NCBI GenBank assembly: GCA_015063685.1
Contig: SVTR01000008.1
Location: 1,451 to 65,450, forward strand
Direction: 5' to 3'
DNA from: Oscillospiraceae bacterium
GTDB taxonomy: Bacteria > Bacillota > Clostridia > Oscillospirales > CAG-272
DNA: 64,000 nucleotides
Position numbers and translations under genes: made by a program. Each line of letters opens with the position of its first letter. Position 1 is the stretch's first letter. Of this stretch, positions 11,527-34,321 are shown piece after piece. The notes beneath the pieces are model-generated. The model did not search any database, was not told where the DNA came from, and was given only the letters and a program-made list of their open reading frames with translations.

Positions 11527-12612
11527 ATGTCCAAGTCCATCTTCGAAATTGATCAGAATTTAGCCGTTGAAACGGTGGCCAATCTCCCCGTTCAGTTTGT
11601 CAACGTCCTTGACGCGCCCTTCAACCTCTACGGTCTCTGCGACCCCCACGGCGGCGGAGCCTTCCACCGCATCCCCCAGGAGGTGGCCGACGCCACCAAC
11701 GAGGGGGTGAAGTTTCTCAACCTCCACACCTCGGGCGGCCGCGTGCGCTTTAAGACCGATTCCCCCCACCTGGCGGTGAAGGTCAAGCTCTCGGGTGTGG
11801 GCATGATGCCCCATATGACTCTCGTGGGTACGGCAGGAATTGACGTATATCTTGGCTACGACGGCGAGTATCGCTACTACGGCTCCTGCTTGACCGAGAT
11901 GGGTAACGACGCCGCCATCAAGATGACCGAGAATAAGGGGTATACCAACATGGTCTGGCTCCCCGCAGAAGGGATGCAGGACGTCCTCCTGAACCTTCCC
12001 CTCTACGGCGGGATCGACGAGCTGTGGCTGGGACTAGCCCCAGGCTCCAAGATAGAACCCGCCGCTCCCTACCGTGACCTGCTTCCCACGGTCTACTATG
12101 GCTCCTCCATCACCCAAGGGGGATGTGCCTCCCGCCCCGGCAATCATTATCCAAACATCCTTTCTCGCAAATACAACGTGGACTTTCGCAACCTGGGCTT
12201 CTCGGGGAGCGCCCGCGGTGAGCAGGCCATATCCGACTACATCGCAAGCCAACCCATGTCGGCCTTCGTCTACGCCTATGACCACAACGCCCCCACCGTG
12301 GAGCATCTGGCCGCCACCCATGAGCCTATGTACCTGAATATCCGCGCCACCCATCCCGACACCCCCGTCGTCTTCATCACTCGCCCCGGCATCCGCTACA
12401 ACGCCGAGGAAAGAGCCCGCCGCGAGGTGGTCAAGGCCACCTATGAGAACGCTAAGGCCAGAGGGGAGAACGTCTACTTCGTGGACGGCGAGACTATCTT
12501 CGCCATCTTCGGCGGCGACGGCGGCAGCGTGGACGGATGCCACCCCAACGATCTGGGCTTTGCCTGCGTGGCGGCGGCCCTCGACCCCATTTTTGCGGAG
12601 ATTTACGGATAA
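11527..12612 (+). CDS. SGNH/GDSL-type hydrolase (esterase-like)
   Basis: Carries YYGSSITQGGCASRPG (block I Ser), GFSGSARGE, and DGCHPNDLGF (block V D..H). The start is trimmed to the ATG at 11527 after AAGGAGG. Confidence 0.75.
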   Translation: MSKSIFEIDQNLAVETVANLPVQFVNVLDAPFNLYGLCDPHGGGAFHRIPQEVADATNEGVKFLNLHTSGGRVRFKTDSPHLAVKVKLSGVGMMPHMTLVGTAGIDVYLGYDGEYRYYGSCLTEMGNDAAIKMTENKGYTNMVWLPAEGMQDVLLNLPLYGGIDELWLGLAPGSKIEPAAPYRDLLPTVYYGSSITQGGCASRPGNHYPNILSRKYNVDFRNLGFSGSARGEQAISDYIASQPMSAFVYAYDHNAPTVEHLAATHEPMYLNIRATHPDTPVVFITRPGIRYNAEERARREVVKATYENAKARGENVYFVDGETIFAIFGGDGGSVDGCHPNDLGFACVAAALDPIFAEIYG

Positions 12613-12829
12613 ATTGTAGTTTATCGGTCGGTTCGTTCCCCGCTCCCCGACCTTCCCCTTTGGGGAAGGTGGCGCGCCCGTAGGGCGTGACGGATGAGGT
12701 GATAACGCTGGCACATCAAGATGTTTTGGCCCATACGTCTTACCTCATCCACCACCTTCGGTGGTCCCCCTTCCCCAAAGGGGAAGGTTCGGAAACGTTG
12801 GTTGCAACCCACCGATAAACCCAAATTTG
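12610..12829. repeat. Palindromic element, P family, bounded by junction-motif variants
   Basis: The ends are TAAATTGTAGTTTATCGGT and ACCGATAAACCCAAATTT. Inside are two CCTTCCCCTTTGGGGAAGG-type palindromes and a GGATGAGGT/ACCTCATCC pair. The first 3 nt are the upstream gene's stop codon. Confidence 0.85.
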
Positions 12830-12852
12830 AACACAAATGAAAGGATACACCC

Positions 12853-13674
12853 ATGACCCACCAGAATCCCCCCATCCAAATTCTCAAGGACAAAGAGCTG
12901 TACGTCTTCGACATGGACGGCACCATTTACCTGGGAAAGATCGTCTTCGATTTCGCTATCCGTTTCATTGAGAATCTCCGCGCCGCGGGCAAGCGGGTGC
13001 TGTTCTTCACCAACAACGCCTCCCGCTCCACCGACGTCTACCTGGAAAAGCTCACCCGCCTGGGCTTCTCCCCCACGGCGGACGAGATCATGTCCTCCGC
13101 CGACGTGACGGTGGCCTATCTCAACACCTATCATAAGGATCAGACCGTCTATCTCATCGGCACGAAGCAGCTGGAGTCCCAGTTCCGCGCGGGGGGCATC
13201 CGTCTGGCCACGGGGAAGGAGGACTCCGTGGATGTGGTGGTGTCCAGCTTTGATACCGAGCTGACCTACGAAAAGCTGGACGACGGTTGCCGTCTCATCC
13301 GAAACGGGGCTACCTACCTATGCACTCACCCCGATTTCAATTGCCCCACCGACACGGGCTTCATGCCCGACAGCGGTGCCATCGCCGCCCTCATCACCGC
13401 CTCCACCGGCGTCATCCCCCGTTACCTGGGCAAGCCTTACCCCGAGGTGGTGGAGATGATCGAGCAGGTCACGGGAATCTCCCGCGACAAGACCTGCATT
13501 TTCGGCGACCGCCTCTACACCGACATCGCCTTGGGCGCGAAGAACGGCGTCACCTCCATCCTCGTTCTGACGGGGGAGGGAACCTATGAGGAGGCTATGG
13601 AGCTGTCCGAGGGGGAGAAGCCCGCCTTCATCTTCCCGTCGCTCGCGGAAGTGGACGAGTCCATCTTCTGCTGA
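12853..13674 (+). CDS. HAD-superfamily hydrolase, subfamily IIA (NagD-like)
   Basis: Carries FDMDGTIY, FFTNNASRS, and C-terminal GDRLYTDI. Confidence 0.8.
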   Translation: MTHQNPPIQILKDKELYVFDMDGTIYLGKIVFDFAIRFIENLRAAGKRVLFFTNNASRSTDVYLEKLTRLGFSPTADEIMSSADVTVAYLNTYHKDQTVYLIGTKQLESQFRAGGIRLATGKEDSVDVVVSSFDTELTYEKLDDGCRLIRNGATYLCTHPDFNCPTDTGFMPDSGAIAALITASTGVIPRYLGKPYPEVVEMIEQVTGISRDKTCIFGDRLYTDIALGAKNGVTSILVLTGEGTYEEAMELSEGEKPAFIFPSLAEVDESIFC

Positions 13675-13709
13675 AATCGTGAGAATTATCACATCCGACC
13701 AAAAATCGA

Positions 13710-13748
13710 AACGCCGTGAAGCCTTTGTAAGCTCACGGCGTTCTTTTT
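13710..13748 (+). terminator. Rho-independent terminator
   Basis: Stem AACGCCGTGA / TCACGGCGTT followed by CTTTTT. Confidence 0.75.
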
Positions 13749-13939
13749 GACGGCAGAGTCATGATTTATATTGGTTGTCTTCCGGGCAGGATTCTGCTTG
13801 TGGACACGGCCATTTCTCGCGGATGCCACCGTATATTCATACGGAGTTCATAAACATATGATACAATCAAACCAATTATGTACAGTCCCCGAATGGGTGT
13901 TGAAATGCTCAAAAAATGGGGAAACAGGAAGGATTATTT

Positions 13940-15121: not shown

Positions 15122-15251
15122 GCGGGATAAGGATAACGGGGTGAAACTTCTAAAAAGGCCCGTTGATATTTCTACTGTTTACTCACGCCGCGGCTCTGAC
15201 CGCCGTTGAAAGTCATTTGCTTTATCCAATCCAAACCGAAAGGAACTGACC

Positions 15252-15971: not shown

Positions 15972-15995
15972 CAAAATCTCCCATCCTCTCCCGAT

Positions 15996-16025
15996 GCATA
16001 CACCTCTTGTGCAGTGGTAAATACT
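15996..16025 (+). promoter_or_regulatory. Putative forespore (sigma-F/sigma-G type) promoter of sigG
   Basis: GCATA, 15 nt, then GGTAAATACT. This resembles my recollection of the Bacillus sigma-F consensus GCATA-N15-GGnnAnAnTn. Confidence 0.4.
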
Positions 16026-16074
16026 TCTCTTGAAGTACGGAAGCGTCGATCGCTTCCCCATCAGGAGCTTTACC

Positions 16075-16857
16075 ATGTACAACAACCATAAAGTTGTCAT
16101 CTGTGGTGTAAATACGGCAAACCTCAAGGTACTGACCGAGAAAGAAAAACAGGACCTCATGGTGCGTGTCAGAGGAGGAGATACCCAAGCCCGTCAGGAA
16201 ATGATCTGCGGGAATCTGCGACTGGTGCTGTCTTTGGTACAGCGGTTTGCAGGACGAAAAGAAAATCTGGATGACCTCTTTCAGGTGGGTTGCATCGGCC
16301 TTGTGAAGGCGGTTGACAATTTTGACATCACGAAAGAGGTCATGTTTTCCACTTACGCCGTTCCAATGATCATCGGAGAGATGCGGCGCTATCTCAGAGA
16401 TAACGCCACCGTGCGGATCAGTCGCTCGGTTCGAGATCTGGCTTACCGTGCCCTCCAGGTGAGAGAGGAGCTTTCCGCCGAGCTGTCCCGCGACCCCACC
16501 CCCGACGAGATCGCCGAAAGACTGGGGGTGCCCCGACAGCGGGTGGTGGCGGCTATGGATGCCATCGTGGAGCCCATCTCTCTCTACGAGCCCGTGTTCA
16601 GCGAGAACGGGGATTCCCTCTATGTCATCGATCAACTCTCGGACACCTCACGCGACGCCAGCGACGAGTCCTGGCTGGAGAACATCGCCCTCCGCGAGGC
16701 GGTGGCGACCCTGTCTCCTCGAGAACAGAATATTATCAAGCTCCGCTATTTCAAGGATAAGACCCAGATGGAGATCGCCTCTGAGATCGGCATCTCGCAG
16801 GCCCAGGTGTCGAGGATTGAAAAGGCGGCGCTGCAGAAGCTTAAAAAACAGTTGTAA
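16075..16857 (+). CDS. sigG: Sporulation sigma factor SigG
   Basis: Near-colinear with B. subtilis SigG: KVVICGVNT, GNLRLVLSLVQRF, DDLFQVGCIGLVKAVDNFD, FSTYAVPMIIGEMRRYLRDN, GISQAQVSRIEKAAL. The ATG at 16075 has AGGAG upstream. Confidence 0.9.
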   Translation: MYNNHKVVICGVNTANLKVLTEKEKQDLMVRVRGGDTQARQEMICGNLRLVLSLVQRFAGRKENLDDLFQVGCIGLVKAVDNFDITKEVMFSTYAVPMIIGEMRRYLRDNATVRISRSVRDLAYRALQVREELSAELSRDPTPDEIAERLGVPRQRVVAAMDAIVEPISLYEPVFSENGDSLYVIDQLSDTSRDASDESWLENIALREAVATLSPREQNIIKLRYFKDKTQMEIASEIGISQAQVSRIEKAALQKLKKQL

Positions 16858-17054
16858 ATGGTTGTTTAGCGTGGCGACCGCCGCATTTTTGACCTTCCCC
16901 TTTGGGGAAGGGGGACCATCCGAAGGATGGTGGATGAGGTAAAAAACTATGGCCGCAATATGTTTTCGGTTTTAGCCTCACCCACCGCAAGCGGTTCCCC
17001 CTCCCCAAAGGGGAGGGTATAGGGCGCGTGTCTCCTCCGCTAAATAACAATTTA
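16855..17054. repeat. Palindromic element, P family, bounded by junction-motif variants
   Basis: The ends are TAAATGGTTGTTTAGCG and CGCTAAATAACAATTTA. The interior is related to 12610-12829. It starts on the sigG TAA stop codon. Confidence 0.85.
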
Positions 17055-17099
17055 TACCCAAACATACAGAAAGGCTCGGCTTGTGCCGTGTACATATCC

Positions 17100-17945
17100 A
17101 TGAAAACGTATCATCTTACGAAAGAATTTATCACCGCCACCACGAACGCCATGCGTGAGGCTGGACGTATCATGCTCTCCGCCCATCGGGACGGTCAGGG
17201 TGGCGAGGTTACCTCTGACGAGATCAACGACAAGGACACCGCCCATGCCCAGGTCAACTTCGTTACGGTTTACGATAAAAAGGTTCAAGCCCTGCTGATC
17301 GAAAAATTACATATAGCCCTCCCAGAGGCCAAGTTTATGGCCGAGGAGGACGGTGCCGATCAGACCGACCCCACCGAAGGACTGTGTTTTGTCATCGACC
17401 CCATCGACGGTACCGCCAATTTTATTCGCGACTTGGCTTGCTCGGCCATATCTGTGGCGCTTTTGTCTGAGGGTATGCCCGTTTTCGGCGCGGTCTACCA
17501 GCCCTATGCCGACGAGTTGTTCCTGGCTGTCCGAGGGCAGGGAACGGTCTGCTACCGCCATGGTAATCCTCCCGAGAGGGTCACCGTCAGCACCCGCCCT
17601 TTGAAGGAGGCCATTGCCCTCCTCGGCACCTCCCCTTACTATAAAGACGAGTTGGGGGAAACTACCGTATCTCTCTTCAAAAATTGTCTCTACCATGCCG
17701 CCGACGTCCGCAGAAGCGGCTCTGCCGCCTATGATTTCTGCAATATTGCCATGGGGCGCACCGACCTTTTCTGCGAAGCCCGACTGTCCCCTTGGGACTA
17801 CGCCGCAGGCTGTCTGATTGTCACCGAGGCGGGTGGACAGGTCACTTGCCTTGATGGCACCCCTCTGCGCTTTGATCAGCCCTGCTCCGTCCTCGCGGCA
17901 GGATGCGGATGCTATGACGAGGCGGTGGAGATATTTCAACGGTAA
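17100..17945 (+). CDS. Inositol monophosphatase family protein
   Basis: Carries FMAEEDG, VIDPIDGTANF and WDYAAGCLIVTEAGG. The start is trimmed to the ATG at 17100. Confidence 0.85.
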   Translation: MKTYHLTKEFITATTNAMREAGRIMLSAHRDGQGGEVTSDEINDKDTAHAQVNFVTVYDKKVQALLIEKLHIALPEAKFMAEEDGADQTDPTEGLCFVIDPIDGTANFIRDLACSAISVALLSEGMPVFGAVYQPYADELFLAVRGQGTVCYRHGNPPERVTVSTRPLKEAIALLGTSPYYKDELGETTVSLFKNCLYHAADVRRSGSAAYDFCNIAMGRTDLFCEARLSPWDYAAGCLIVTEAGGQVTCLDGTPLRFDQPCSVLAAGCGCYDEAVEIFQR

Positions 17946-18234
17946 ATTGTTGTTTAGCGTTGTTGTGCCCCGCCTTGAAACAGTCATCCTGAGCGAGGGC
18001 GATGCCCGAGTCGAAGGATCCCACAGGAAGCAAAACCTTTTTATGACAATGGTTTTTTACAGGTATAAAGAGATCCTTCGGCGCGGCCAGCGGCCTTGTT
18101 CAGGATGACCGCGTTGGTCAGTAAACGCCCATAAACAACAATTTATCAGCCTAACCATCCATCGCGTGATGTATCTAGCACAGGATGCACTACCCCGAGC
18201 CAGAGCCCCACCGCAGGTGGTAAACAACAATTTA
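17943..18234. repeat. Composite element: junction motif - H cassette - junction motif - Xa arm - junction motif
   Basis: Exact TAAATTGTTGTTTA at 17943, and exact TAAACAACAATTTA at 18132 and 18221. Nearly identical to 29722-29999 except that the inner cassette is inverted. Confidence 0.9.
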
Positions 18235-18278
18235 TATGATTATCTCTGAACTATATCCTAAAACAAAGGAACGCACAT

Positions 18279-19010
18279 ATGAAAACCATTCTCCAATGGC
18301 TCCGCCGTGAGCGCGAGGATATGAAGCTCCTCCTCCGCTCCATCCCCGCTACCGTGGTGACCCTTTTCGTGGTCTCGGTCATCTGCATGAACCTGTTGGC
18401 CAATAAGACCCTCCTCCAACTGGATTGGATCGCCCTGGACGGCGGTATCCTCATCTCCTGGCTGTCCTTCATGTGCATGGACATCATCACTAAGCACTTT
18501 GGCCCGAGGGCATCCAACCGCATCTCCCTTTTGGCCTGCGGCATCAACCTGCTCACCTGCGCCATCTTTTTTGTCGCCGCCGCCATCCCCTCAAACGCGG
18601 AGGACTACACCGCCTTCAACGGCATCTTCGGCGGCACCTGGTTCATCCTTTTGGGCAGTACCGTGGCCTTCCTTGCCTCGGCCGTCATCAATAATACCCT
18701 CAACTGGATGATTGGCAAGGGCTTTAAAAAGAACCCTGACGGCAAGCTGGCCTACGCCATGCGAACATACGTCTCCACCTTCATCGGCCAGTTTTTGGAT
18801 AATTTCATTTTCTCTGTCATTGTCTTCGTCATCTTCGCCCCCATCTTCTGGAACGGCTTCTGCTGGACGGTGCTCCAATGCGCCATGTGCGCCCTGACGG
18901 GAGCCGCGGCCGAGCTTGTCATGGAAATCCTCTTTTCCCCCATCGGCTACCGTATGGTGCAAAAGTGGAAGCAGGAGCGGGTGGGACAGGCGTATTTGGA
19001 TAACAGATAA
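18279..19010 (+). CDS. Queuosine-precursor transporter family (YhhQ/DUF165, VUT family)
   Basis: A multi-pass membrane protein with the pattern NLLANKTLLQLDWIALDGGILISWLSFMCMDIITKHFG typical of YhhQ-like proteins. Confidence 0.7.
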   Translation: MKTILQWLRREREDMKLLLRSIPATVVTLFVVSVICMNLLANKTLLQLDWIALDGGILISWLSFMCMDIITKHFGPRASNRISLLACGINLLTCAIFFVAAAIPSNAEDYTAFNGIFGGTWFILLGSTVAFLASAVINNTLNWMIGKGFKKNPDGKLAYAMRTYVSTFIGQFLDNFIFSVIVFVIFAPIFWNGFCWTVLQCAMCALTGAAAELVMEILFSPIGYRMVQKWKQERVGQAYLDNR

Positions 19011-19160
19011 ATTTTTGTTTATCGAAGAGATACAAGATACGGCCGAGCAAGCTCGGCAGATACAAGATACAAGATAGGGAACTTTTGAAAAAATATGTCG
19101 CCGTATGGGTTTAGGAATATCTTGTATCTCGTATCTCGTATCTCGTATCTCCGTATCTCT
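19008..19160. repeat. K-family element: junction-motif variant, GATACAA heptamer runs, GCCGAGCAAGCTCGGC hairpin, inverted heptamer run
   Basis: TAAATTTTTGTTTATCG lies on the stop codon at 19008. The hairpin is at 19042-19057. The inverted run TATCTTGTATCTCGTATCTCGTATCTCGTATCTCCGTATCTC lies at 19117-19160. Confidence 0.8.
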
Positions 19161-19206
19161 CCGCAACGCCGCATTTTGCTCATATCATCTTGAAAGGAGA
19201 CTCCAT

Positions 19207-19860
19207 ATGAAGATCCTCATCACGGGCACCACCCAAGGCATCGGCCGCGCCATCGCCGTGAAATTTCTCAGCGAGGGACATACCGTTATCGGCATCGACC
19301 GCCAACCCTCCAGCATTGAACATACAAGCTATACCCACCATACCTGCGACATCCGCGACTATGACCGCCTCCCCGCCGTAGAAGGGGTGGAGATCCTTAT
19401 CAACAACGCGGGCACCCAAAACGAAAAGGATATTGATACCAACCTCAAAGCCCTCATCCATATGACCGAGACCTACGGCGTCACCCCCGCCATCAAGTCT
19501 GTCCTGCATATCGGCTCGGCCAGCGCACACACGGGCGCGGAATTTCCCGAATACTGCGCCTCCAAGGGCGGCGTTCTGGCCTATACCAAGAACGTGGCCA
19601 TGCGGGTGGCCAAATACGGCGCCACCTGCAACAGCCTGGACCCCGGCGGCGTGCTGACCCCCCTCAACGAGTGCGTCATGAACGATCCCGAGCTGTGGGC
19701 TGAGATCATGAACGAGACCCCCCTCCGCCGCTGGGCGACCCCCGAAGAGATCGCCGAGTGGGCGTATTTCCTCACCGTCGTGAATACCTTCTGCACGGGA
19801 CAGAGCATCCTCGTGGACGGCGGCGAGGCCATCAATTATCACTTTGTGTGGAAGGACTAA
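19207..19860 (+). CDS. SDR-family oxidoreductase
   Basis: Carries ILITGTTQGIGRAIA (TGxxxGxG), NNAG and the YCASK catalytic motif. The ATG at 19207 follows AAGGAG. Confidence 0.85.
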   Translation: MKILITGTTQGIGRAIAVKFLSEGHTVIGIDRQPSSIEHTSYTHHTCDIRDYDRLPAVEGVEILINNAGTQNEKDIDTNLKALIHMTETYGVTPAIKSVLHIGSASAHTGAEFPEYCASKGGVLAYTKNVAMRVAKYGATCNSLDPGGVLTPLNECVMNDPELWAEIMNETPLRRWATPEEIAEWAYFLTVVNTFCTGQSILVDGGEAINYHFVWKD

Positions 19861-19878
19861 AGAAAAGTTATAGGTAAT

Positions 19879-19995
19879 AGTGAAGAGTGAATAGGTGTGG
19901 ATGGAAACCTTCGGTTTCCCACATTCAAGTAAAAAATGGACAAATCCGAAGGATTTGCACCTCCACTTTTCACTCTTCACTCTTCACTCTTCACT
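19879..19995. repeat. S-family inverted doublet flanked by TTCACTC heptamer runs
   Basis: AGTGAAGAGTGAA on the left and (CTTCACT)x4 on the right enclose the hairpins GGAAACCttcGGTTTCC and CAAATCCgaaGGATTTG. Confidence 0.75.
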
Positions 19996-20020
19996 AAAAA
20001 ACGAAAGGCAGGTACATACC

Positions 20021-21658: not shown

Positions 21659-21760
21659 TAAAAAATTTTTCTCCGTCGCATAATGTTTACAAAAAACCTC
21701 TTATATTGAAGCGAAGATTGTAGTAAAATAAAGAGAATAAATATCATGCGAGGTGGCAGT

Positions 21761-24200: not shown

Positions 24201-24386
24201 TCGTATCAAAGAAGGTACTTAGCGTGAAGATTTAGAGGTGACCTTCAATGATCTCAAGCCCCAAGATACTGCTTCGCGCAGGATTCTCCCTAAAATGGGA
24301 CTTACCCCCTTATGTCGCTGACGAGCGACACGGTCGAATTTCAAGGTATATTTGTGCCGCCGCATAGCGGTGGAATGGAGATAATT

Positions 24387-25238: not shown

Positions 25239-25268
25239 AAGTTGCTTGCCGGAGGTTAACACAAACCT

Positions 25269-25361
25269 GTAGGGGTGACCCTGTGTGGTCGCCCGCACGG
25301 CAGGAATCTATATTCAATAAGAATTTATTGCCAACGGACGACCACATAGGGTCGCCCCTGT
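25269..25361. repeat. REPIN-like inverted doublet (G family)
   Basis: GTAGGGGTGACCctgtgtGGTCGCCC and GGACGACCacatagGGTCGCCCCTG are separated by an AT-rich ~40-nt spacer. Confidence 0.8.
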
Positions 25362-25419
25362 CCTAATTCAATTTTCCGCTAAACAAACTCTCCACACCAA
25401 AACGAAAGGAGCCTGCGTC

Positions 25420-26661
25420 ATGGCAAAATATCCCATTGGATTCTGGAATTACCCCTCTGTCACCACCACCCCCGTATCCGAGGTGGCCCGCTGGGACAAC
25501 TGCGGCATCACCTGCAACCAAACTCCCACATTCAGCTACGCCCACCATGATCCTGCCCTCATGACCGCTTTCCTCGATGAGATGCACAAGTACGACATGA
25601 AGGCTTTCGTTTACATCAACGATCTGAATTTCCATAACTTCAAGGAGGATCCCGAATCCTTCCGTGCCGTTTACGAGCGCGCCTATGCTGACTTTGGCCA
25701 TCATCCCGCCACCCTGGGCTTCTTCATCGGTGACGAGCCCTTGCAGCCCAAGGAGTTTGCCGCCTGCATCCGAGCCTATCAGATCATGCGTGAGGTGTCC
25801 CCCGAGCTGACGCCCCTCCTCAACTTCAACCCCTACTGGTTGGGCATCGAGACCGACTTCCTGGGCGGCCAAAGATTCGAGGACTGGCTGGACAACTTCA
25901 TCGACGCCTCGGGCTGTCCCCTCATCTGCTACGATTGCTACTGGCAGATGAACCCTGAGGAGGAGGGCACCAATTCCTACTTCCTTGACCTCAATAAGTA
26001 CACCGCCGCAGGCAAGCGCAAGGGGGTCAAGGTGTGGAATACCCTTCTGTCGGTGGGTCATTTCCGCTATCGTGTCCCCTCGGAGGACGATCTGCGCTGG
26101 CAGCTCTCCACCACTGTGGCCAGCGGCTGTGACGGTATTCTGTGGTTCTACTACTACGGAAACAATAATGGCAACAACTACCGCGGCGCCCCCATCGACG
26201 AGCTGGGAGAGGAGTCCGAAACCTATACCCGTATGCGCCGTGTGCAGAAGCTCTTCCACCGCCGCTACGGCGAAATGATCACCCGACTGAACCACGGCAA
26301 GACCTGGCACTTCCAGAAGGCTTACGGCGACTATCCCACGTATATGTGCTACGATATTCCTCGTCTGCGTAAGATGGAAAGCGCCCACGGCATCCCCGGC
26401 ATCGTCAGCACCTTCTACGACGAGAACGGAGAGCAGTACCTCTGCCTCTGTAACAACTCCCCCTTTGAGTCGGGGCTGTTCTCCTTCATCTTCGATCCCG
26501 GCGTCACTTCTTGTACCCGATATTGGGACAACGGCCGTGAAATCGACTTCAAAGCCTACCACCACGACGCCGTCTATCAGGAGCACTCCTCCTTCACCAA
26601 GATCGGCGTGTACCTGGCCCCCGGACAAATGGAAATCTTCAAGGTGGGCTATGACAAGTAA
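25420..26661 (+). CDS. Hypothetical cytoplasmic protein, possibly a TIM-barrel glycoside-hydrolase-like enzyme
   Basis: Clean 413-aa ORF with the codon style of its neighbours. FIGDEPLQP resembles a clan GH-A acid/base strand. No family recognised with confidence. Confidence 0.6.
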   Translation: MAKYPIGFWNYPSVTTTPVSEVARWDNCGITCNQTPTFSYAHHDPALMTAFLDEMHKYDMKAFVYINDLNFHNFKEDPESFRAVYERAYADFGHHPATLGFFIGDEPLQPKEFAACIRAYQIMREVSPELTPLLNFNPYWLGIETDFLGGQRFEDWLDNFIDASGCPLICYDCYWQMNPEEEGTNSYFLDLNKYTAAGKRKGVKVWNTLLSVGHFRYRVPSEDDLRWQLSTTVASGCDGILWFYYYGNNNGNNYRGAPIDELGEESETYTRMRRVQKLFHRRYGEMITRLNHGKTWHFQKAYGDYPTYMCYDIPRLRKMESAHGIPGIVSTFYDENGEQYLCLCNNSPFESGLFSFIFDPGVTSCTRYWDNGREIDFKAYHHDAVYQEHSSFTKIGVYLAPGQMEIFKVGYDK

Positions 26662-26713
26662 GCCTGATCCTTCACCGTCTTGTTTTCATTTTTTGCATTG
26701 AAAGGAGCGCACC

Positions 26714-27541
26714 ATGTACAATGGGCCTTATAAACTTGGCATCAACCTCATGGGAGGCTCGGGTCTCTCAGTAGACGAACACGTCGCTCTCCTCAAGCGC
26801 ATCGGTTGGGACGGCTTCTTCACAGGCTGGAACCGAGAGAAGCTGGATGAATTTCAAGCCGCCGCCGAGAAATACGGCATGATCTGGCAGTCCATCCACG
26901 CCCCCTTTACCCAAGTCCGCTATCTGTGGAACGAGGGTGAGCTGGGGGAACAGATTACAGACGAGCTCATCGAATGTGTCCGAGATTGCGCCGCGCACAA
27001 CGTCCCTGTCATGGTCATCCACCCCTTCATAGGCTTTGAGGATCACGATCCTACCGAGGTGGGACTTGAAAATTTTGGCAAGATCATCACCGCGGCGGAT
27101 GAGCTGGGGGTGCGGCTCGGCTTTGAGAACGTGGAGGGCGAGGAGTACCTGAAGGCTATCTTTGAGCGCTACGCCAATCACCCTTCCCTGGGCTTCTGCT
27201 TCGACACGGGCCATGAGCTGTGCTACAACCGCGGCAAGGATATGCTGGCCGAGTACGGTCACGCCCTCTGCCACACCCACTTCAACGACAATATCGGTGT
27301 AACGGGCAAGGACATTTTCTGGACAGACGATCTCCATCTGGTCATGGGTGACGGTATAGCCGACTGGACAAGCATCATGGCTCGCATTCGGAAAACGGGC
27401 TACAACGGGCCTCTCATGTGCGAGTTGTCCTTCTCCAACAAGCCCGGAAAAAATACCCACGACGCCTATGCCGCTATGGGACATGAAAGCTTCTACGAAT
27501 TTGCTCTCAAGCGAATGAGGGAAATGACAAAAAATAATTAA
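26714..27541 (+). CDS. Sugar-phosphate isomerase/epimerase (xylose-isomerase-like TIM barrel)
   Basis: Carries VMVIHP, GFENVEGEEYL, FCFDTGHE and HFNDN, the pattern of the AP_endonuc_2 family. Confidence 0.75.
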   Translation: MYNGPYKLGINLMGGSGLSVDEHVALLKRIGWDGFFTGWNREKLDEFQAAAEKYGMIWQSIHAPFTQVRYLWNEGELGEQITDELIECVRDCAAHNVPVMVIHPFIGFEDHDPTEVGLENFGKIITAADELGVRLGFENVEGEEYLKAIFERYANHPSLGFCFDTGHELCYNRGKDMLAEYGHALCHTHFNDNIGVTGKDIFWTDDLHLVMGDGIADWTSIMARIRKTGYNGPLMCELSFSNKPGKNTHDAYAAMGHESFYEFALKRMREMTKNN

Positions 27542-27558
27542 AGGGAGAGATCTTTCCG

Positions 27559-29619
27559 ATGAAAAAGACGATCGCATGTTTATTGGCCGTCACGCTATTC
27601 TCTCTTTCTTTGGCTGCGTGTGCACAGGATAGCGGCGGTTCGGCAAAGGAAACCGACCCTGCTTCCACCACCGAAGCAAAGACAGATACCGAAACAGATA
27701 TGGAAACCGAATCGGAGGCCGAAGCTACAACCGAGATCAATACCGAATATACTACCGACGCAGCAACCGAGGCGGAAAGCAAGACCGAAACGGAAGCCGA
27801 GACCACCGGAGAGACCCAAGCTGAACTCTCAATGGATACCGAAGCGGTCACCAAAATTGAGTCCGAAGCAGTCACCGAAATCGAGCCCGAAACCGAAGCC
27901 CGTACCGAGGTTGACACAGAGGCCGCACCGGAAGTCGAAACCGTTGACTATGATGCTTATCTCACCCTTGAGCCCGAAGCACCTGCTGAGGGAGAGGGCA
28001 TGACCATCAGCGGCGTGGACATTTCCGAATTTTCCATCGTGCGATCGGCAGATATGCCTGAGGGGCAGATCACCGCTTTGGAGATGTTTGCGGCGCAGGT
28101 CCAAAAGGTTACCGGCGCGGCCTTACCTATCATCACGGACGATCAAACCGCCGATCATGAAATCGTCATTGGCGACACCAACCGTCAGAATACCGCCGTG
28201 ACGGCGGCCGTTTCAGAGATCGACGATGACGGCTATGCCATCGTTGTGGACAGTGGGGATCTATATATTTCTGCCACCACAGGCCGCGGCGTTGTGTACG
28301 GCATGTGCGATTTCCTTGAAAATTATATGGGCGTGCGCTTGTACGCCATCGACTTTATCTATCACCGCAACGTGGGTGCCATCACGCTGAACGAAGGCAT
28401 GAAGGTTGTCTTCAGCCCTGAATTTCACGCCCGTAGAACTTGGATCGATAAGCTCGTAGCGGATCCGCTGGATAACGTTATTTTCCTCAAAAACAATTCC
28501 GACGGGCTGAAAAAAGCCAAGGTGGGAGACCCTGTCGTTGTCCGCGCCAATTCTAATCACACCATTGATAAATTGGCCGACATGAAGGGCGCGAACCCCT
28601 GTCCCTCTGATGAGGCGGTTTATCAGACCGTGCTGGCCAACGTGATGGAAAAGCTGGAGGAGAACCTGCTTCAAAACACCATCCAGGTGGGACAGGTAGA
28701 CGGTAGTGAACCCTGCCGTTGCGCTAACTGCAAGGCGGTGAATGAGCCCTACGGCACCGAAAACGCCGCCTGGTTCCTCTTCATCAACCGCCTGGCCGAC
28801 GAGGCCAACGCAAAGTTCCCTGAGCGTGACGTGAAGATCATTACGTATTCCTATCAGTTTACCCATGGCGTCCCCGGCAACGGCTTCACCGTGTCTGATA
28901 ACGTCATTATCAACTTCTGCTTTGACGATGCTTGCTACAACCATGCCTTTGACGATCCCGGATGCGCCAAGAACGTGCCTGTGGTAGCCGAATTGAGAGA
29001 GTGGGCAAAGCTGTGCAAGGCGGATAATCTGTACGTTTACGAATACGCCTACAACTGCGGAGACGCAACCTTGCCCGACCCCAACATCCTCGTTATGTGG
29101 GATAATTTCCGGCTCTATCTGGAATGTGGGGTCAACGGTATACTGTCCGAGGGCATTCAAAGCAAGGGTGGCGACTTTGACTATCTGCGTGCCTATCTCA
29201 GAGCCAAGCTGGTCTGGAATCCTCATATGACCAGAGACGAGTATTTTACCCTGCTGAAACAGTTCATGGTGGATTACTACGGCGACGCGGCCCCCCTTAT
29301 GATCGAGTATCTGAAGATTCTCGGTGACGGTAAGCGCAACTATTGTACGGATATGTATACACCTATGTACACCTTCTACTGCGTTGAGGGCGGAACCGAG
29401 GAAAAAGATATTTCCCAAGATATTCTGCTTCAATGCCAAGCCCTCTTTGATGAGGCGTTGGCACTGGAAACGCTCACCGAAGAACAAAAAAATCACGTAG
29501 AGTATACCGCTATCCACCTGTTCCTCGTCCGTTGGAAGTACTTCCCCAAGGATGATCCCGATGGTAAGACGGCCTGCTACAAGACCATCTATCAGTTCCG
29601 TAATAAATACGGGGTTTGA
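27559..29619 (+). CDS. Lipoprotein with an acidic T/E-rich linker and a DUF4838-like (GH20/GH67-N-like) domain
   Basis: Lipobox MKKTIACLLAVTLFSLSLAAC, then a ~110-aa TE-rich linker. EIVIGDTNR...DDGYAIVVDSGDLYISATTGRGVVYGMCDFLENYMGVR is typical of DUF4838 proteins. Confidence 0.75.
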   Translation: MKKTIACLLAVTLFSLSLAACAQDSGGSAKETDPASTTEAKTDTETDMETESEAEATTEINTEYTTDAATEAESKTETEAETTGETQAELSMDTEAVTKIESEAVTEIEPETEARTEVDTEAAPEVETVDYDAYLTLEPEAPAEGEGMTISGVDISEFSIVRSADMPEGQITALEMFAAQVQKVTGAALPIITDDQTADHEIVIGDTNRQNTAVTAAVSEIDDDGYAIVVDSGDLYISATTGRGVVYGMCDFLENYMGVRLYAIDFIYHRNVGAITLNEGMKVVFSPEFHARRTWIDKLVADPLDNVIFLKNNSDGLKKAKVGDPVVVRANSNHTIDKLADMKGANPCPSDEAVYQTVLANVMEKLEENLLQNTIQVGQVDGSEPCRCANCKAVNEPYGTENAAWFLFINRLADEANAKFPERDVKIITYSYQFTHGVPGNGFTVSDNVIINFCFDDACYNHAFDDPGCAKNVPVVAELREWAKLCKADNLYVYEYAYNCGDATLPDPNILVMWDNFRLYLECGVNGILSEGIQSKGGDFDYLRAYLRAKLVWNPHMTRDEYFTLLKQFMVDYYGDAAPLMIEYLKILGDGKRNYCTDMYTPMYTFYCVEGGTEEKDISQDILLQCQALFDEALALETLTEEQKNHVEYTAIHLFLVRWKYFPKDDPDGKTACYKTIYQFRNKYGV

Positions 29620-29630
29620 GCTTACACCGA

Positions 29631-30016
29631 TAAATTGTTGTTTAGCGGGCAGTGCCCGCAGCCAACGCTCGGGAATGTTCAACCCATGTGAACTGCATCC
29701 CGCGATGGGCAGTTAGGCAGGTAAATTGTTGTTTATGGGCGTTTACTGACCAACGCGGTCATCCTGAGCAAGGCCGCTGGCCGCGCCGAAGGATCTCTTT
29801 ATACCTGTAAAAAACCATTGTCATAAAAAGGTTTTGCTTTCTGTGGGATCCTTCGACTCGGGCATCGCCCTCGCTCAGGATGACTGTTTCAAGGCGGGGC
29901 ACAACAACGCTAAACAACAATTTATCAGCCTAACCATCCATCGCGTGATGTATCTAGCATAGGATGCACTACCCCGAGCCAGAGCCCCACCGCAGGTGGC
30001 CGGCAAACACAATTTG
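29631..30016. repeat. Complete composite element: motif - Xb arm - motif - H cassette - motif - Xa arm - degenerate motif
   Basis: Exact motifs at 29631 and 29722 (forward) and 29911 (reverse), with degenerate CAAACACAATTTG at 30004. It fills the spacer between the lipoprotein gene and dxr. Confidence 0.9.
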
Positions 30017-30044
30017 CGTTCCAATTCAAATAAAAGAGGAAATT

Positions 30045-31259
30045 ATGTATCACACCAATTCCTACCCCGACCTGATCATTTTGGGTTCCACCGGTTCTGT
30101 GGGCACCCAGGCGGCGGATGTGGCACGGTGCCAGACGGCACAAGGCCGCAAAATTGCCGTCCGAGGGGTCACCGCCCACCGTGACGTGGCCACCATTGAG
30201 GCGCAGGTCAGAGAATTTCATCCCGATTTTGCGGTCATGACCGATGAGACCGCCGCCGATGATCTGAAAATCAGACTGGCGGACACCGATACCACGGTGC
30301 TTGGAGGCTTCGAGGGCATCCGTGAAATGCTGGGGACTGTCAAAACCGAAAATCCCATGGGTATCACCGTGGAAAACTCCATTTTGGGAGAGGCAGGGCT
30401 GGCGCCCACCCTCTACACCCTGGAGGCCGGCCACCGTCTTGCCCTTGCCAATAAAGAATCTCTGGTGGTGGGCGGCGAGCTGGTCATGGCTCTTTGCCGC
30501 GCTACCGGACAGGAAATTTTGCCTGTGGACAGCGAGCATTGCGCCATTTTCCAATGCATGCGGGCAGGACGCCCCGAGGAGGTCAGAAAAATCTGGCTCA
30601 CCGCGTCGGGGGGACCCTTCTTTGGCTACACCAGGGAGCAGCTCGCCACGGTTACCAAGGCACAAACCCTGGCCCATCCCACCTGGAAGATGGGTGCCAA
30701 GATCACCGTAGATTCAGCGACCCTGATGAACAAGGGCTTCGAGGTCATCGAGGCGGTGCATCTTTTCGGCGTCAAGCCCAAAGACGTGCAGGTAGTGGTG
30801 CATCGTGAGAGCATGATTCACTCCATGGTGGAATATACTGACTATAGCATCATCGCTCAGATGTCGGTGCCTGATATGCGGCATTGCGTCCAGTACGCCC
30901 TGACCCATCCCTGCCGCAGCTCCGCCGAGGGGATCATGAAGCCCCTGGATCTCTTTGAGGTGGGCAAGCTGACCTTCGCCCGCCCCGACACCGAGACCTT
31001 CCCCCTTTTGAAGCTGGCCATGGATGCCATCGCTTTGGGCGGTGCGGTGCCTGCCGTGCTGAATGCCGCCAACGAGGTGGTGGTAGCCGCCTTCCTCCAC
31101 GAGAAGATCAAATTCTGCGAGATCTCGGAGTACGTCACCCGCGTGGTGGAGGACATGAAGGGTGTCTCGGCATGGCACAGCTACGACAGCATCATGGAAG
31201 CTGACAGCCTGGCAAGACAAAGCGCTCGGGCGCTTCTCAACCATCATACGGAGGATTGA
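30045..31259 (+). CDS. dxr: 1-deoxy-D-xylulose-5-phosphate reductoisomerase
   Basis: Carries ILGSTGSVGTQAADV, LANKESLV, VDSEHCAIFQC and HPTWKMGAKITVDSATLMNKG. The start is trimmed to the ATG at 30045. Confidence 0.93.
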   Translation: MYHTNSYPDLIILGSTGSVGTQAADVARCQTAQGRKIAVRGVTAHRDVATIEAQVREFHPDFAVMTDETAADDLKIRLADTDTTVLGGFEGIREMLGTVKTENPMGITVENSILGEAGLAPTLYTLEAGHRLALANKESLVVGGELVMALCRATGQEILPVDSEHCAIFQCMRAGRPEEVRKIWLTASGGPFFGYTREQLATVTKAQTLAHPTWKMGAKITVDSATLMNKGFEVIEAVHLFGVKPKDVQVVVHRESMIHSMVEYTDYSIIAQMSVPDMRHCVQYALTHPCRSSAEGIMKPLDLFEVGKLTFARPDTETFPLLKLAMDAIALGGAVPAVLNAANEVVVAAFLHEKIKFCEISEYVTRVVEDMKGVSAWHSYDSIMEADSLARQSARALLNHHTED

Positions 31260-31267
31260 ATCCATTC

Positions 31268-32338
31268 ATGCAAATTTTTAAATTCGCACTCTATCTTTTG
31301 CTGACCTTCTTTCTTTTAGGCATTTTGATCTTTGTCCATGAGCTGGGCCACTACCTGACGGCTCGGGCCTGTAAGGTGACCATCCATGAGTTTGCCATCG
31401 GTATGGGCAAGCGCCTGGGGGGCTTTACCTCCAAGAAAACCGGCATCAAATACTCTTTCCGTCTTTTGCCCATCGGCGGCTATGTAGCCATGGCAGGCGA
31501 GGATGAGGGCGGGGAAGGATCGGAAGATCCCAATGCCTTCCACCGCAAAAACGTATTCCAAAAAATGCTGATCCTGGTTGCCGGCGCAGGCATGAACGTG
31601 CTGACGGGCTTTTTGGCTATGCTGATCCTGACTGTGGGTATGTCCGTGGCTGACTATCCCTTGCCGTCTACTGTGGTGGGTGAATTTGTCCTGGGCGCGC
31701 CCAGCGAGATCACCGGGCTTCAGGTGGGGGATGAGATCCTGCAAATCAACAACACCAAGGTTCATACGGGTTATGATCTTATTTATGAGATCACAAGCCA
31801 GGGCTACGAGCCTGTGGATCTGGTGGTCAAGCGGAATGGGAACAAGGTCCTTTTGCGGGACGTGCGTTTTCCTGTGACCAACGAAAGCGGATTGGCGGTA
31901 GGCAACCGCGATTTTAACGTGTTGGCCATGGAATCCACACCTGTAACTCTGCTGAAAACCACCTTCTACCGCTCAACCTCGGCCATCAAGATGGTCTTTG
32001 ACTCCATTGGAGGCATTATTTCGGGGCGATATAGCGTGAAGGATCTGTCAGGTCCTATCGGCGTGACCAATACTGTCTCTCAGGTAGCACAGCAGCCCAT
32101 GGCGGGATGGAACATTTTGTATTTGTTCGCCATCATCGCCATGAACCTGGGCGTCATGAATCTTTTGCCCATCCCCGCGCTGGACGGCGGACGTTTTGTG
32201 TTCCGCGTTATTGAGGCTCTGCGCTTTGGAAAACCTCTGAAACCGGAGTGGGAGGCGCGGATCCACGGCGTGGGCATGATGATCCTGCTGCTTTTGATGG
32301 TTGTCATTGCCTTTAAGGATGTATTTACTTTGTTCTGA
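31268..32338 (+). CDS. rseP: RIP zinc metalloprotease RseP/YluC family
   Basis: Carries the HELGHY motif in TM1, a PDZ-like middle region, and C-terminal NLLPIPALDGG. The start (31256 TTG or 31268 ATG) is uncertain. Confidence 0.88.
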   Translation: MQIFKFALYLLLTFFLLGILIFVHELGHYLTARACKVTIHEFAIGMGKRLGGFTSKKTGIKYSFRLLPIGGYVAMAGEDEGGEGSEDPNAFHRKNVFQKMLILVAGAGMNVLTGFLAMLILTVGMSVADYPLPSTVVGEFVLGAPSEITGLQVGDEILQINNTKVHTGYDLIYEITSQGYEPVDLVVKRNGNKVLLRDVRFPVTNESGLAVGNRDFNVLAMESTPVTLLKTTFYRSTSAIKMVFDSIGGIISGRYSVKDLSGPIGVTNTVSQVAQQPMAGWNILYLFAIIAMNLGVMNLLPIPALDGGRFVFRVIEALRFGKPLKPEWEARIHGVGMMILLLLMVVIAFKDVFTLF

Positions 32339-32340
32339 CC

Positions 32341-32367
32341 AAAAAGGGGACGGTGTGTCCCTTTTTT
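32341..32367 (+). terminator. Hairpin plus T-run after rseP
   Basis: AAAAAGGGGAC ggtgt GTCCCTTTTTT directly after the stop codon. Confidence 0.6.
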
Positions 32368-32434
32368 GGGATACAGCTTGTCGTATAATGAGGTAAATTG
32401 TTTTCTCCCGACATAAAATCAAGAGGAGGCTTCT

Positions 32435-33517
32435 ATGAATTACAACGCCATTCGCCGTGCGACGCGACCTGTCAAAGTTGGCCGCGTGGGCATTGGTGGG
32501 ACAAATCCCATCGTCATTCAATCCATGACCAATACCGACACTCACGACCTGTCGGCCACTATAGAGCAGATCAAGGCTTTGGCTTCGGCGGGGTGTGATA
32601 TTGTCCGTCTCACCGTGCCCGATCTGGAGGCCGCTGAGACCATTCGTGCCATTAAGGAGCAGGGACTCACCATCCCTCTGGTGGCAGATATCCATTTTAA
32701 CCACAAGATTGCCTTGCGTTGTGCCGAGTACGGGGTGGACAAAATCCGCATCAACCCCGGCAACATCGGGGCGGACGAGTACGTAAAGGAAGTGGCCGAC
32801 GCTTGTCGTCAGCGGAACATTCCCATCCGCATTGGTGTCAACAGCGGATCTCTTGAAAAACATATTTTGGCCAAGTACGGCGCACCTACCCCCGAAGCGC
32901 TGTGCGAAAGCGCACTCTATCACGCCGCCCTTTTGGAAAAGTTCGATTTTGAGGATACGGTGATCTCCATCAAGGCCTCCACCGTGCCGAGCATGATCAA
33001 AGCCAACCGTCTGCTGGCTGAGAGGTGCGCTTATCCTATTCACCTGGGCGTCACCGAGGCGGGAGGCGCCGAGATGGGACTGGTCAAGTCAGCCGTGGGC
33101 ATCGGTGCCATGCTTTGCGAAGGCATTGGTGACACCTTCCGCGTGTCCCTCACCGCATCTCCCGTGAAGGAGATCGACGCCGCCAGAAAGATCCTCAATG
33201 CCGTGGGCGTGGAGGGACAATGCGGCTTGCAGATCGTGTCCTGTCCCACCTGCGGACGCACTAAGATCGACCTGATTGACCTGCACACCCGCTTTGAGGC
33301 GGCGGTAAAGGCCGAGGGGCTTATGGATCTGCCTGTGAAGGTGGCTCTCATGGGGTGCATTGTCAACGGCCCAGGTGAGGCACGGGAGGCCGACATTGGT
33401 ATCGCCGGAGGCAAGGGTGAGGCTTTGCTTATCGCCCGGGGCGAGGTGCTTTGCAAGATCCGTGAGGATGAGATCATCCCCACGCTGATTGGGAAGCTTA
33501 AAGAAATGAAAGGTTAA
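32435..33517 (+). CDS. ispG: 4-hydroxy-3-methylbut-2-en-1-yl diphosphate synthase
   Basis: Carries VGGTNPIVIQSMTNT, RINPGNIG and SCPTCGRT...GCIVNGPGE. Confidence 0.93.
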   Translation: MNYNAIRRATRPVKVGRVGIGGTNPIVIQSMTNTDTHDLSATIEQIKALASAGCDIVRLTVPDLEAAETIRAIKEQGLTIPLVADIHFNHKIALRCAEYGVDKIRINPGNIGADEYVKEVADACRQRNIPIRIGVNSGSLEKHILAKYGAPTPEALCESALYHAALLEKFDFEDTVISIKASTVPSMIKANRLLAERCAYPIHLGVTEAGGAEMGLVKSAVGIGAMLCEGIGDTFRVSLTASPVKEIDAARKILNAVGVEGQCGLQIVSCPTCGRTKIDLIDLHTRFEAAVKAEGLMDLPVKVALMGCIVNGPGEAREADIGIAGGKGEALLIARGEVLCKIREDEIIPTLIGKLKEMKG

Positions 33518-34321
33518 ATTGTTGTTTACCACCTGCGGTGGGGCTTTGGCTCGGGGGAGTGCATCCCGTGTGAAACTCATACCGCAATGGGCAGTTAGGC
33601 AGATAAATTGTTGTTTATGTTCTTTTCCACTTTCTTTCCTCGGCGAAAGAAAGTGGAGTAAAGAGCGCCGCCAAAGACAGAACCTACGGTTCTCCTCTGG
33701 ACTCCAACTCCCTCGTGACGCACGCCGCTCCCCAATGGGGGAGTGGAGCGGCTATCGCGTGTTTTGTGTCAGCCAACGCCGATAGCCTGCCCCTGCGGCG
33801 GAGCGCCTTGAGGCTCATACCTCGCTGTTTAGAAAGCGTTAGTTGATTTGAAAAAATTCAATATTGAAAAATAGCATTGAATCCATAGTTCTCACGGCGA
33901 GAGGTGATTGTTTGATTGGAGAACAACAACATTTGTCCATTCGCCATCAGAACTGTAGCTTCGCCACCTGACTCTGACCATCCCTCTGTTCTACCAACAG
34001 AAACATATCAATTGGACTTTTGATGAGCCCCGAGGCGCTCCGCCGTGGGGGCGGGCCACCGCTGGTGGCTGACAAAATACACGCGATAGCAGACCACCTC
34101 TGTGGTCTGCGTGCGTCACGAGGGAGTTGGGTTCTTAGGGAGAACCGTAGGTTCTGCACTAAGCGGCGCTCTTTTGGAACTTTTCTGCCGCCGTGGGCAG
34201 AAAAGTGGAAAGAATGCTAAACAACAATTTACCTGCCCAACTACCCAGCGCGATATGTGGTGCGTACAGAATGCACTACCCCCAGCGATGGTAGCCAGCA
34301 CGGCCGGCAAATGACAATTTA
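33515..34321. repeat. 807-bp nested composite palindrome filling the ispG-polC spacer
   Basis: Forward motifs at 33515 and 33604, reverse at 34218, degenerate at 34308. The X arms are 33529-33603 and 34232-34307. The core consists of two ~200-bp inverted arms (33618-33820 and 34022-34217) around an AT-rich ~200-bp centre. Confidence 0.9.

Follow-up and report, generated by a model that had tools for sequence, protein, structure and literature searches.

Repeats that begin on stop codons

How can a repeat element come to start exactly on the stop codon of the gene that precedes it? The question is raised by a stretch of 64,000 nucleotides from an Oscillospiraceae bacterium (contig SVTR01000008.1; the whole stretch is called the window below), for which a preliminary description had reported that five genes have as their stop a TAA that doubles as the opening three bases of a recurrent motif or of a close variant of it. 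The motif, here called M (TAAATTGTTGTTTA, 14 nt), has 17 matches in the window at two mismatches or fewer, whereas 0.13 are expected. All the coordinates of the five cases were correct, and the five TAAs are the in-frame stops of genes verified with Pfam and NCBIfam, SigG being recognized by NCBIfam NF006071 above its cut-off. A sixth gene that shares its stop with a repeat, cdsA (24375-25238), was absent from that description and is added here (Table 1, element 5).

The explanation that we favour, and to which we give slightly better than an even chance, is that mosaic palindromic selfish repeats insert without target-site duplication at junctions resembling KG/TAA (the slash marks the junction) and are kept only at the nearest place behind a coding sequence where they do no harm, the TAA becoming the stop codon there.

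Distance between repeats and stop codons

The wider sample was obtained by scanning a single genome of each species for the M-A-M arm, in which an oriented unit A of about 75 nt lies between two copies of M. At least 80 loci were present among the matches listed, which came from five related metagenome-assembled genomes (MAGs) and from one 1.5-kb contig binned as Parabacteroides. Syntenic loci of relatives were added to the scan loci, giving a total of about 0.64-0.65 Mb with 292 motif copies, and 86 loci were used for the element layout. Gene ends were called by a simple home-made codon-usage classifier, with a median score of +30 for true ends and of -25 for other long open runs.

For the 170 outward-facing M ends, the position of the motif was measured relative to the first base of the stop. 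Twenty ends lie at distance 0 (one is likely a false call, and 15 are retained under stricter rules), 16 are found 2-8 nt past the stop, mostly after TGA or TAG, and three at 14-23 nt, while none of the 170 shows a negative distance, that is, a gene reading into the element. Taken over all ends, 150 of 170 are thus off the stop, an outcome that the preliminary description had named as speaking against the association; half of the ends that face a gene 3' end within 25 nt are nevertheless on it. Where the A unit is present, profile homology begins exactly at the TAA. Only two of 277 good copies are located inside called genes, though 80% of the sample is coding. In this sample, which is enriched in elements, stop codons owned by a repeat amount to about 10% of the TAA-terminated genes, and masking the repeats before gene calling, or treating them as wholly intergenic, would misplace the gene ends.

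When intergenic regions were sorted by the orientation of the flanking genes, the motif was found in 33 of 328 co-directional, three of 41 convergent and seven of 22 divergent ones. Among the 33 co-directional elements, 12 begin on the stop (15 if three indel-bearing motifs are counted), six begin 5-8 nt past it and about seven directly follow the T-run of an intrinsic terminator. The window stands at the high end of this distribution: without it, seven of 26 co-directional elements are on the stop and, without all syntenic loci, three of 17. At the other side, the right end lies 18-58 nt before the next start in 21 of the 33. The median length of co-directional spacers without an element is 75 nt, and the outgroup spacers at the same junctions measure 13-69 nt. 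Since the right-end distances match those of element-free spacers, the elements are located at the stop-proximal edge and the original spacer has been kept downstream. For the window, the gaps between right ends and following start codons had been correctly given as 24, 46, 45, 29 and 62 nt, but the statement that the elements precisely fill the operon-internal spacers was misleading, because these 18-58 nt of original spacer remain.

Comparison with orthologous junctions

As the preliminary description had proposed, the C-termini of the proteins were compared with those of element-free orthologues. The stops of sigG, of the inositol monophosphatase (IMPase) gene, of cdsA and of ispG occupy the same codon in all lineages; the C-terminus of IMPase falls in the same alignment column as in its 25 closest homologues, and the SGNH hydrolase ends where its homologues end. 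These matches indicate that five of the six proteins (SigG, IMPase, IspG, SGNH and CdsA) have their native ends, with no residue replaced, and that only the Vut_1/YhhQ-like transporter has been altered.

The Vut_1 junction is also the only clean pair of filled and empty sites. In L096, which has no element there, Vut_1 runs on for five codons to a TGA overlapping the start of the short-chain dehydrogenase (SDR) gene (ATGA), and the SDR ribosome-binding site, GAAAGGAG, lies inside this tail. The repeat of the window, like that of L001, stands exactly between AGA or AGG and GAAAGGAG, and the window protein is five residues shorter than its L096 orthologue. The empty site of L096 reads AAA/GAA at the junction, with no TAA and no duplication. 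As the coding sequence of L096 continues for five codons without a TAA at this place, the TAA of the element is the new stop codon of Vut_1.

At the orthologous stops that are free of the motif, TGA was found in 11 of 11 cases, and 24 of the 28 stops of neighbouring element-free genes in the region are TGA as well. In the outgroup L097, whose proteins are 64-66% identical, each of the five junctions has a TGA without the motif, and the in-group lineages (78-92% identity, nearly star-shaped tree) have full elements or remnants. At the cdsA stop, all in-group lineages have either the motif or what is left of it, the remnant of L003 and L094 starting with TAAATTGTTTT. Remnants are also present on the ispG stop of L003 and of L094, the latter (GTTTGCCGCACTACGCGGC) being the end of M followed by the first A hairpin, and a mini-hairpin remnant follows sigG in L004. 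The IMPase stop of L096 has a solo M', the reverse complement of M (TAAACAACAATTTA), which can sit on a stop because M and M' both begin with TAAA. The inner modules differ among lineages at one and the same junction, for example between L001 and the window inside the same IMPase frame. Among strains of the window's species, no presence/absence polymorphism was detected at the IspG, HAD and Vut_1 loci, where only the number of K repeats varies (see below). Taken together, the shared junctions, the differing modules and the absence of strain polymorphism show that the occupancy is old, that the interiors turn over and that the outer motif persists.

An empty-site search by flank joining over the 86 loci returned only the sites already known, all with remnants. 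Element-free orthologues that carry TAAATTG after the stop had been put forward as the sign of a gene-end signal. Orthologues with short spacers do have a sequence like it, but they hold fragments of the A module, and these short-spacer forms are therefore eroded remnants of elements.

Junction sequence and tests of insertion

The shared TAA is preceded by G in 15 of 20 cases and by TG or GG likewise in 15 of 20, as against 12% at the other TAA-terminated genes (p = 8e-11), and the base before M, all copies considered, is G in 195, A in 71, T in 9 and C in 2. Since KG precedes the shared TAA as it does at internal copies, the junction is sequence-selective and the repeat consensus, (K)G/TAAATTGTTGTTTA, reaches into the last sense codon of the gene.

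Uniform insertion was rejected (p = 1.4e-12), as it predicts about 2% of the elements at distance 0 where 36% were observed. In a model where elements may use every same-strand TAA from the stop up to 15 nt ahead of the following start, the stop codon makes up 35% of the sites, and 57% of the sites within 25 nt, close to the observed 36% and 60%, the first prediction spanning 23-49% over the choices of parameters. Insertion at TA was rejected (p = 0.0006) and TAAA as target was borderline. No target-site duplication was found, the flanks being identical in one of 39 elements at 2 nt and in none of 39 at 3 nt or more, and there is none in the Vut_1 pair. After the elements that overlap a stop, the right flank begins with T or C.

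Architecture of the repeat family

The elements, which occur in several related MAGs of an uncultured Oscillospiraceae-like gut clade, are non-coding, chromosomal, modular palindromes of about 100-870 nt, bounded by M and M' as perfect 14-nt terminal inverted repeats at both ends. The typical composite is M-A-M-X-M'-A'-M'. The A unit opens with a small GC hairpin whose sequence is variable and whose pairing is kept, tandem (M-A)n arrays are present, and at least eight hairpin families can take the place of X. Most often X is an inverted doublet of GTAG+hairpin units, 143 nt long and in a REPIN-like layout, which occurs in both orientations. In the RGIG8736 MAG, the copies of this module are almost identical to one another, a hint that they were active not long ago. 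Of 133 such units (e.g. GTAGGGGCGACC-CTATGTG-GGTCGCCC), 54 are demonstrably framed by M...M', about 50 stand at the edge of a contig and have M on the side that can be seen, and 18 are internal and unframed; these counts indicate that the GTAG doublets are a separate family often nested in M frames. The boundary motif M itself is linear and AT-rich, without GTAG.

Full elements fold into a single hairpin in which the stop's U-A-A forms the first pairs (z = -7.6 to -10.7); GC-rich hairpins begin 11 nt past the stop. The sense and antisense strands did not differ in folding energy (mean difference +1.9 kcal/mol, p = 0.30) or in G.U pairs (212 vs 197), and this symmetry gives no sign of selection at the RNA level. 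RNAalifold on a MAFFT alignment of 115 A units did not retrieve any structure, probably because of misaligned indels. No Rfam family was obtained at the gathering thresholds across the window, nor at E <= 1 across 29600-34400. A search for a terminator hairpin with a T-run gave only two overlapping weak hits inside elements (16859-16884), and no promoter or terminator signal in the elements exceeded the shuffle level; where a true terminator follows the gene, the element begins after the terminator T-run. The 14-mer M has no occurrence in the searchable literature, and no copy was found in the viral collection.

About 70 contigs (L007-L086) end 120-127 nt into a multi-copy inner module, all these tails being assembler breaks. 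The repeats are thus a major cause of fragmentation in short-read MAGs of the clade, in which assemblies break about 120 nt into each repeat copy.

Some further arrangements were noted. Arrays of three or four motif+A units at a spacing of 86-91 nt (L031, L076, L038, L045) have a superficial repeat-spacer look, the 'spacers' being all versions of the A unit. A second junction motif, TAAATTATTTTTAGCGG / CCGCTAAAAATA..., stands beside some GTAG doublets (L017, L023, L050, L075) and may be a sister boundary motif. GTAG+hairpin units or doublets are present in Clostridia, some without the boundary motif (7470-7559 and 25269-25294 of the window; L041, L063, L079); the survey of GTAG repeats (PMC3733652) does not mention Firmicutes or Clostridia.

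The window has a G+C content of 55% and, as it encodes SigG, PolC and CotJ, belongs to a spore-forming Firmicute. The nearest named records are MAGs labelled Clostridia, Eubacteriales, Oscillospiraceae or Ruminococcaceae, and the RGIG MAGs among them bear the labels deer colon, cecum or rectum. The contig binned as Parabacteroides (L019, JAGBDR010000094.1, 1516 bp) has a perfect M-A-M arm; its label is most likely a binning error rather than the trace of a transfer between phyla.

Proposed mode of spread

According to the favoured explanation, the repeats would spread by a process that makes no target-site duplication, that prefers junctions like their own terminus (KG followed by a TAA-like sequence) and that may depend on single-stranded DNA or hairpins. 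Selection would purge the copies that interrupt a coding sequence or that part the next gene from its translation-start region and, in tightly packed co-directional genes, the place left would be the first nucleotides past the last sense codon. With TAA at the start of its terminus, the element could merge there with the native stop or replace it. Long vertical inheritance would follow, during which the inner modules would be exchanged, inverted, nested or deleted, the outer motif staying where it is since it now provides the gene with its stop codon.

The preliminary description had offered two alternatives, selection of TAA or TAAA as the target and supply of the stop by the insertion. Each is partly supported and neither is enough alone. 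The first agrees with the prediction of the same-strand TAA model and with the selected KG bases but fails at Vut_1, where the empty site has no TAA. The second fits Vut_1 and the TGA of all 11 motif-free orthologues, but no residue has been replaced in the other five proteins. Where the protein length is unchanged, the TAA may have been present before the insertion or may have been delivered by it.

Several observations weigh against the proposed mode of spread. A pre-existing TAA under-predicts the ends just past the stop, of which 16 are found at 2-8 nt for 19-20 at distance 0, as compared with a ratio of 17:67 under the null. A delivered TAA leaves the native length of five of the six proteins unexplained, and no displaced stop was seen at the right flanks. 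Neither a recent insertion nor a strain-level polymorphism was caught among the lineages and strains compared. A transposase, RAYT or any other recombinase was sought without success in the window (Pfam, about 38 open reading frames, ORFs) and in the ORF lists of three short contigs, and single-sequence folds of the A unit gained hardly any stability over shuffled sequence. Furthermore, the locus sample was chosen on the M-A-M arm, the RGIG8736 MAG has the largest share in it, and the cases of stop overlap are partly orthologous duplicates.

The KG/TAA preference, together with the absent duplication, offers a handle for finding the mobilising enzyme. In a bolder version, which we regard as quite unlikely, a recombinase acting on single-stranded hairpin DNA, possibly of the HUH or RAYT-like kind, would read a KG/TAA-like junction and install palindromes preferentially where coding DNA gives way to non-coding DNA, turning TGA into TAA; the framed sites would then be recurrent recombination points where hairpin cargos, and perhaps gene blocks (Vut_1-SDR; 25420-29619), are exchanged.

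Alternative explanations

It is unlikely, if well worth weighing, that there is no target selectivity at all, the repeats inserting anywhere with their own TAA and surviving only where they are harmless, so that the overlap with stops would be survivorship. The element of Vut_1, which landed inside an ORF at a site free of TAA and supplies the stop, is compatible with such a process, as are the TGA codons at motif-free orthologous (11/11) and neighbouring element-free (24/28) stops, the excess of elements 2-8 nt past TGA and TAG stops and the strong exclusion from genes. The 2% that uniform insertion gives at distance 0 is, however, far from the 36% seen, truncated proteins should dominate the distance-0 class whereas five of six proteins have their native length, and a bias for TG or GG before the TAA is not expected from a position-blind process.

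The repeat could also be a selected gene-end module, i.e. a hairpin starting at the stop and kept because it regulates the upstream gene through ribosome stalling, protection of the mRNA 3' end or differential expression in the operon. A comparable role has been proposed for the E. coli REPs that lie within 15 nt of a stop. We hold this reading to be improbable for the present repeats. The predicted stem does start from the U of UAA, with its first GC-rich hairpin inside the range of under 16 nt reported for E. coli (PMC12306157, from its reference 17); lineages with 78-92% protein identity have kept the motif at the same stops, and the clustering within 8 nt of the stop exceeds what the availability of TAA predicts. 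A regulatory role at gene ends is nevertheless difficult to reconcile with the strand symmetry of folding energy and G.U pairs, with the frequent occurrence of elements in divergent promoter regions (7/22) and 5' of genes, with inner modules that are freely swapped, inverted and eroded and with the lack of a terminator-like T-run and of an Rfam family, and the persistence of the TAA is simply explained by its being a stop codon. A hairpin embedded in a stop codon would in any case be a natural system for asking if the ribosome stalling at repeats described in E. coli is general.

A classical miniature inverted-repeat transposable element (MITE), moved by a DDE transposase of the IS630/Tc1-mariner type that inserts at TA with duplication and often takes the TA of a stop codon as target, is highly improbable. 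TA...TA ends with 14-nt inverted terminal repeats, AT-rich termini as in most bacterial MITEs (PMC2229807) and two motif copies per arm, recalling an IR/DR layout, are what such an origin would leave, but there is no duplication beyond the motif, the right flank begins with T or C and not with the A or G expected from a duplicated stop-codon TA, and the 86 loci showed neither a parent insertion sequence nor two motifs 0.7-3 kb apart with a transposase between them. A TA-duplicating MITE was rejected on the missing duplication, the TA null (p = 0.0006) and the AAA/GAA empty site of Vut_1.

Equally hard to sustain, and likewise rejected, is a native gene-end signal in which TAAATTG... would be ancestral after stops and would serve as a landing pad for unrelated hairpin repeats: orthologues with short spacers keep a TAAATTGTT-like sequence on the stop, GTAG doublets occur independently of the frames and, in some genomes, REP dimers lie inside longer palindromes whose free form was not found (Di Nocera et al., PMC3733652), but the outgroup has no motif at any of the five junctions, the A-module fragments of the short forms mark them as remnants, minimal frames are very rare (five in the whole metagenome collection, none on a stop) and most motif copies are internal to elements or away from gene ends.

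Relation to known repeat systems

The family is new, but its stop-sharing behaviour is already known from other bacteria, the closest precedents being the repetitive extragenic palindromes (REPs) and the BIME and REPIN assemblies. In common with these, the present repeats are high-copy extragenic palindromes with inverted doublets and mosaic clusters, they are vertically inherited and long-lived, they lack target-site duplications and they lie near gene ends or overlap them; the inner 143-nt module, a GTAG+hairpin doublet, is a further likeness to REP/REPIN. The ends of GTAG REPs frequently supply flanking ORFs with a TAG stop (Di Nocera et al., PMC3733652), whereas the stop shared here is TAA. 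The boundary also differs, being a 14-nt AT-rich linear motif instead of an imperfect GC palindrome of 20-40 nt with a GTAG or CGTC tag, and one such boundary frames at least eight unrelated cargo hairpins as well as the oriented 75-nt A unit that forms tandem arrays. REPs and REPINs are moved by RAYT tyrosine HUH transposases, the cognate RAYT being a single-copy gene that the repeats flank; in contrast, the host here belongs to the Clostridia and no RAYT was found in the window or in the few short-contig ORFs checked. The pattern of selfish palindromes at stops, mainly known for the GTAG REPs of Proteobacteria, is hereby extended to Clostridia and to an AT-rich terminus beginning with TAA.

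In E. coli, 260 of 496 REPs are reported to lie within 15 nt of a stop and to down-regulate translation there by making ribosomes stall (PMC12306157, from its reference 17). The present family resembles these stop-proximal REPs in that many repeats directly follow stops and a stable predicted hairpin falls in the footprint of the terminating ribosome. It differs from them in that the repeat can share the stop codon itself and shows no strand asymmetry that would point to selection on the RNA.

Bacterial MITEs usually have TA termini and target duplications, and some fuse with ORFs or terminate them (PMC2229807). With MITEs such as Correia/CREE, RUP, ERIC/RU and YPAL, the present repeats share a short non-coding sequence, terminal inverted repeats with TA tips and stem-loops pairing the 5' and 3' ends; unlike them, they have no target-site duplication, a mosaic nested layout, no parent insertion sequence in the loci surveyed and a distribution for which the TA-target model was rejected. 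The IS200/IS605 elements and the PATE elements derived from them make no duplication, adjoin a fixed sequence of 4-5 nt, which resembles the KG/TAA preference, and have hairpin-rich ends. Their ends are, however, asymmetric and without terminal inverted repeats, whereas the inverted repeats are perfect here, and the only empty site examined (L096, AAA/GAA) is without the presumed target despite the strong preference for KG/TAA.

Elements and neighbouring features of the window

The features of the window are collected in Table 1.

Table 1. Repeat elements and related features, in positions of the window.
Feature	Position	Strand	Description
GTAG-hairpin doublet	7470-7559	none	No flanking motif; the REP-like family can occur outside M frames
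Element 1	12610-12829	none	Motif variant TAAATTGTAGTTTA on the stop of the SGNH/GDSL hydrolase gene; inner hairpins of CCTTCCCCTTTGGGGAAGG type; reverse motif, degenerate, at 12816-12829; start of the HAD hydrolase gene 24 nt further on
Element 2	16855-17054	none	Motif variant on the sigG stop; reverse motif 17041-17054
Element 3	17943-18234	none	Perfect motif on the stop of the IMPase-family phosphatase gene; 175-nt GTCATCCTGAGCGAGG hairpin module, reverse motif (18132), A' module, second reverse motif (18221)
Element 4	19008-19191	none	13/14 variant TAAATTTTTGTTTA on the stop of the Vut_1/YhhQ-like transporter gene, then K-family (GATACAA) hairpin
Element 5	25236-25393	none	Degenerate motif TAAAAGTTGCTTG on the cdsA stop (25236-25238); GTAG-hairpin doublet 25269-25294 and ~25335-25359; degenerate reverse motif ~25380-25393
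Element 6	29631-30016	none	Full composite M-A-M-hairpin-M'-A'-M' (last M' degenerate)
Solitary motif-like remnant	32394-32407	+	TAAATTGTTTTCTC in the rseP-ispG spacer
Element 7	33515-34321	none	Composite on the ispG stop: M-A-M, inner module, M'-A'-M' (last M' degenerate); 62 nt before polC
Element 7, inner module	33618-34217	none	600-nt nested palindromes
K-family GATACAA array and hairpin	38832-38966	none	Begins with TAAAGATAC; arms in common with 19042-19079
Element 8	60086-60421	none	Full composite M-A-M, GTAG REP-like doublet, M'-A'-M'

Two full composites of the window are not on a stop: element 6 begins 11 nt past the TGA that closes the DUF4838 gene and leaves 29 nt between its right end and dxr, and element 8, which folds with z = -10.7, lies on the 5' side of the minus-strand gene mtaB. 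Element 2 folds as a single hairpin from the U of UAA (z = -7.6), and its inner hairpin belongs to a family that it has in common with element 1. There is no reverse motif at the right end of element 4, which stops just before the ribosome-binding site of the SDR gene, GAAAGGAG. In the rseP-ispG spacer, at the position past the rseP terminator, relatives have A-module fragments or full elements.

The 600-nt module of element 7 contains several nested long inverted repeats around an AT-rich central core of about 190 nt (33830-34020), and modules of this type recur in other MAGs (L057, L069; 674-nt spacing).

The K family consists of runs of the GATACAA heptamer that form a hairpin around GCCGAGCAAGCTCGGC (19022-19165, 38832-38966). 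It likewise abuts stops, namely the TAA of Vut_1 and the TGA of polC (38829-38831), the latter being directly followed by TAAAGATAC... of the GATACAA array, as had been correctly described. The number of K copies differs among strains of the same species (L104-L112), in which the Vut_1-SDR spacer measures 189, 196 or 247 nt.

Two lineage-restricted gene blocks are flanked by repeats. One (18279-19860) follows the IMPase gene and consists of Vut_1 and the short-chain dehydrogenase; the other (25420-29619), between cdsA and dxr, encodes an unknown 413-aa protein, a sugar-isomerase-like TIM barrel (ORF 26714-27541) and DUF4838. The repeats may mark or mediate the insertion of such blocks. Another hairpin repeat, made of GTGAAGA and TCTTCAC units, was found at 19868-19999, between the short-chain dehydrogenase gene and the next gene, of 545 aa.

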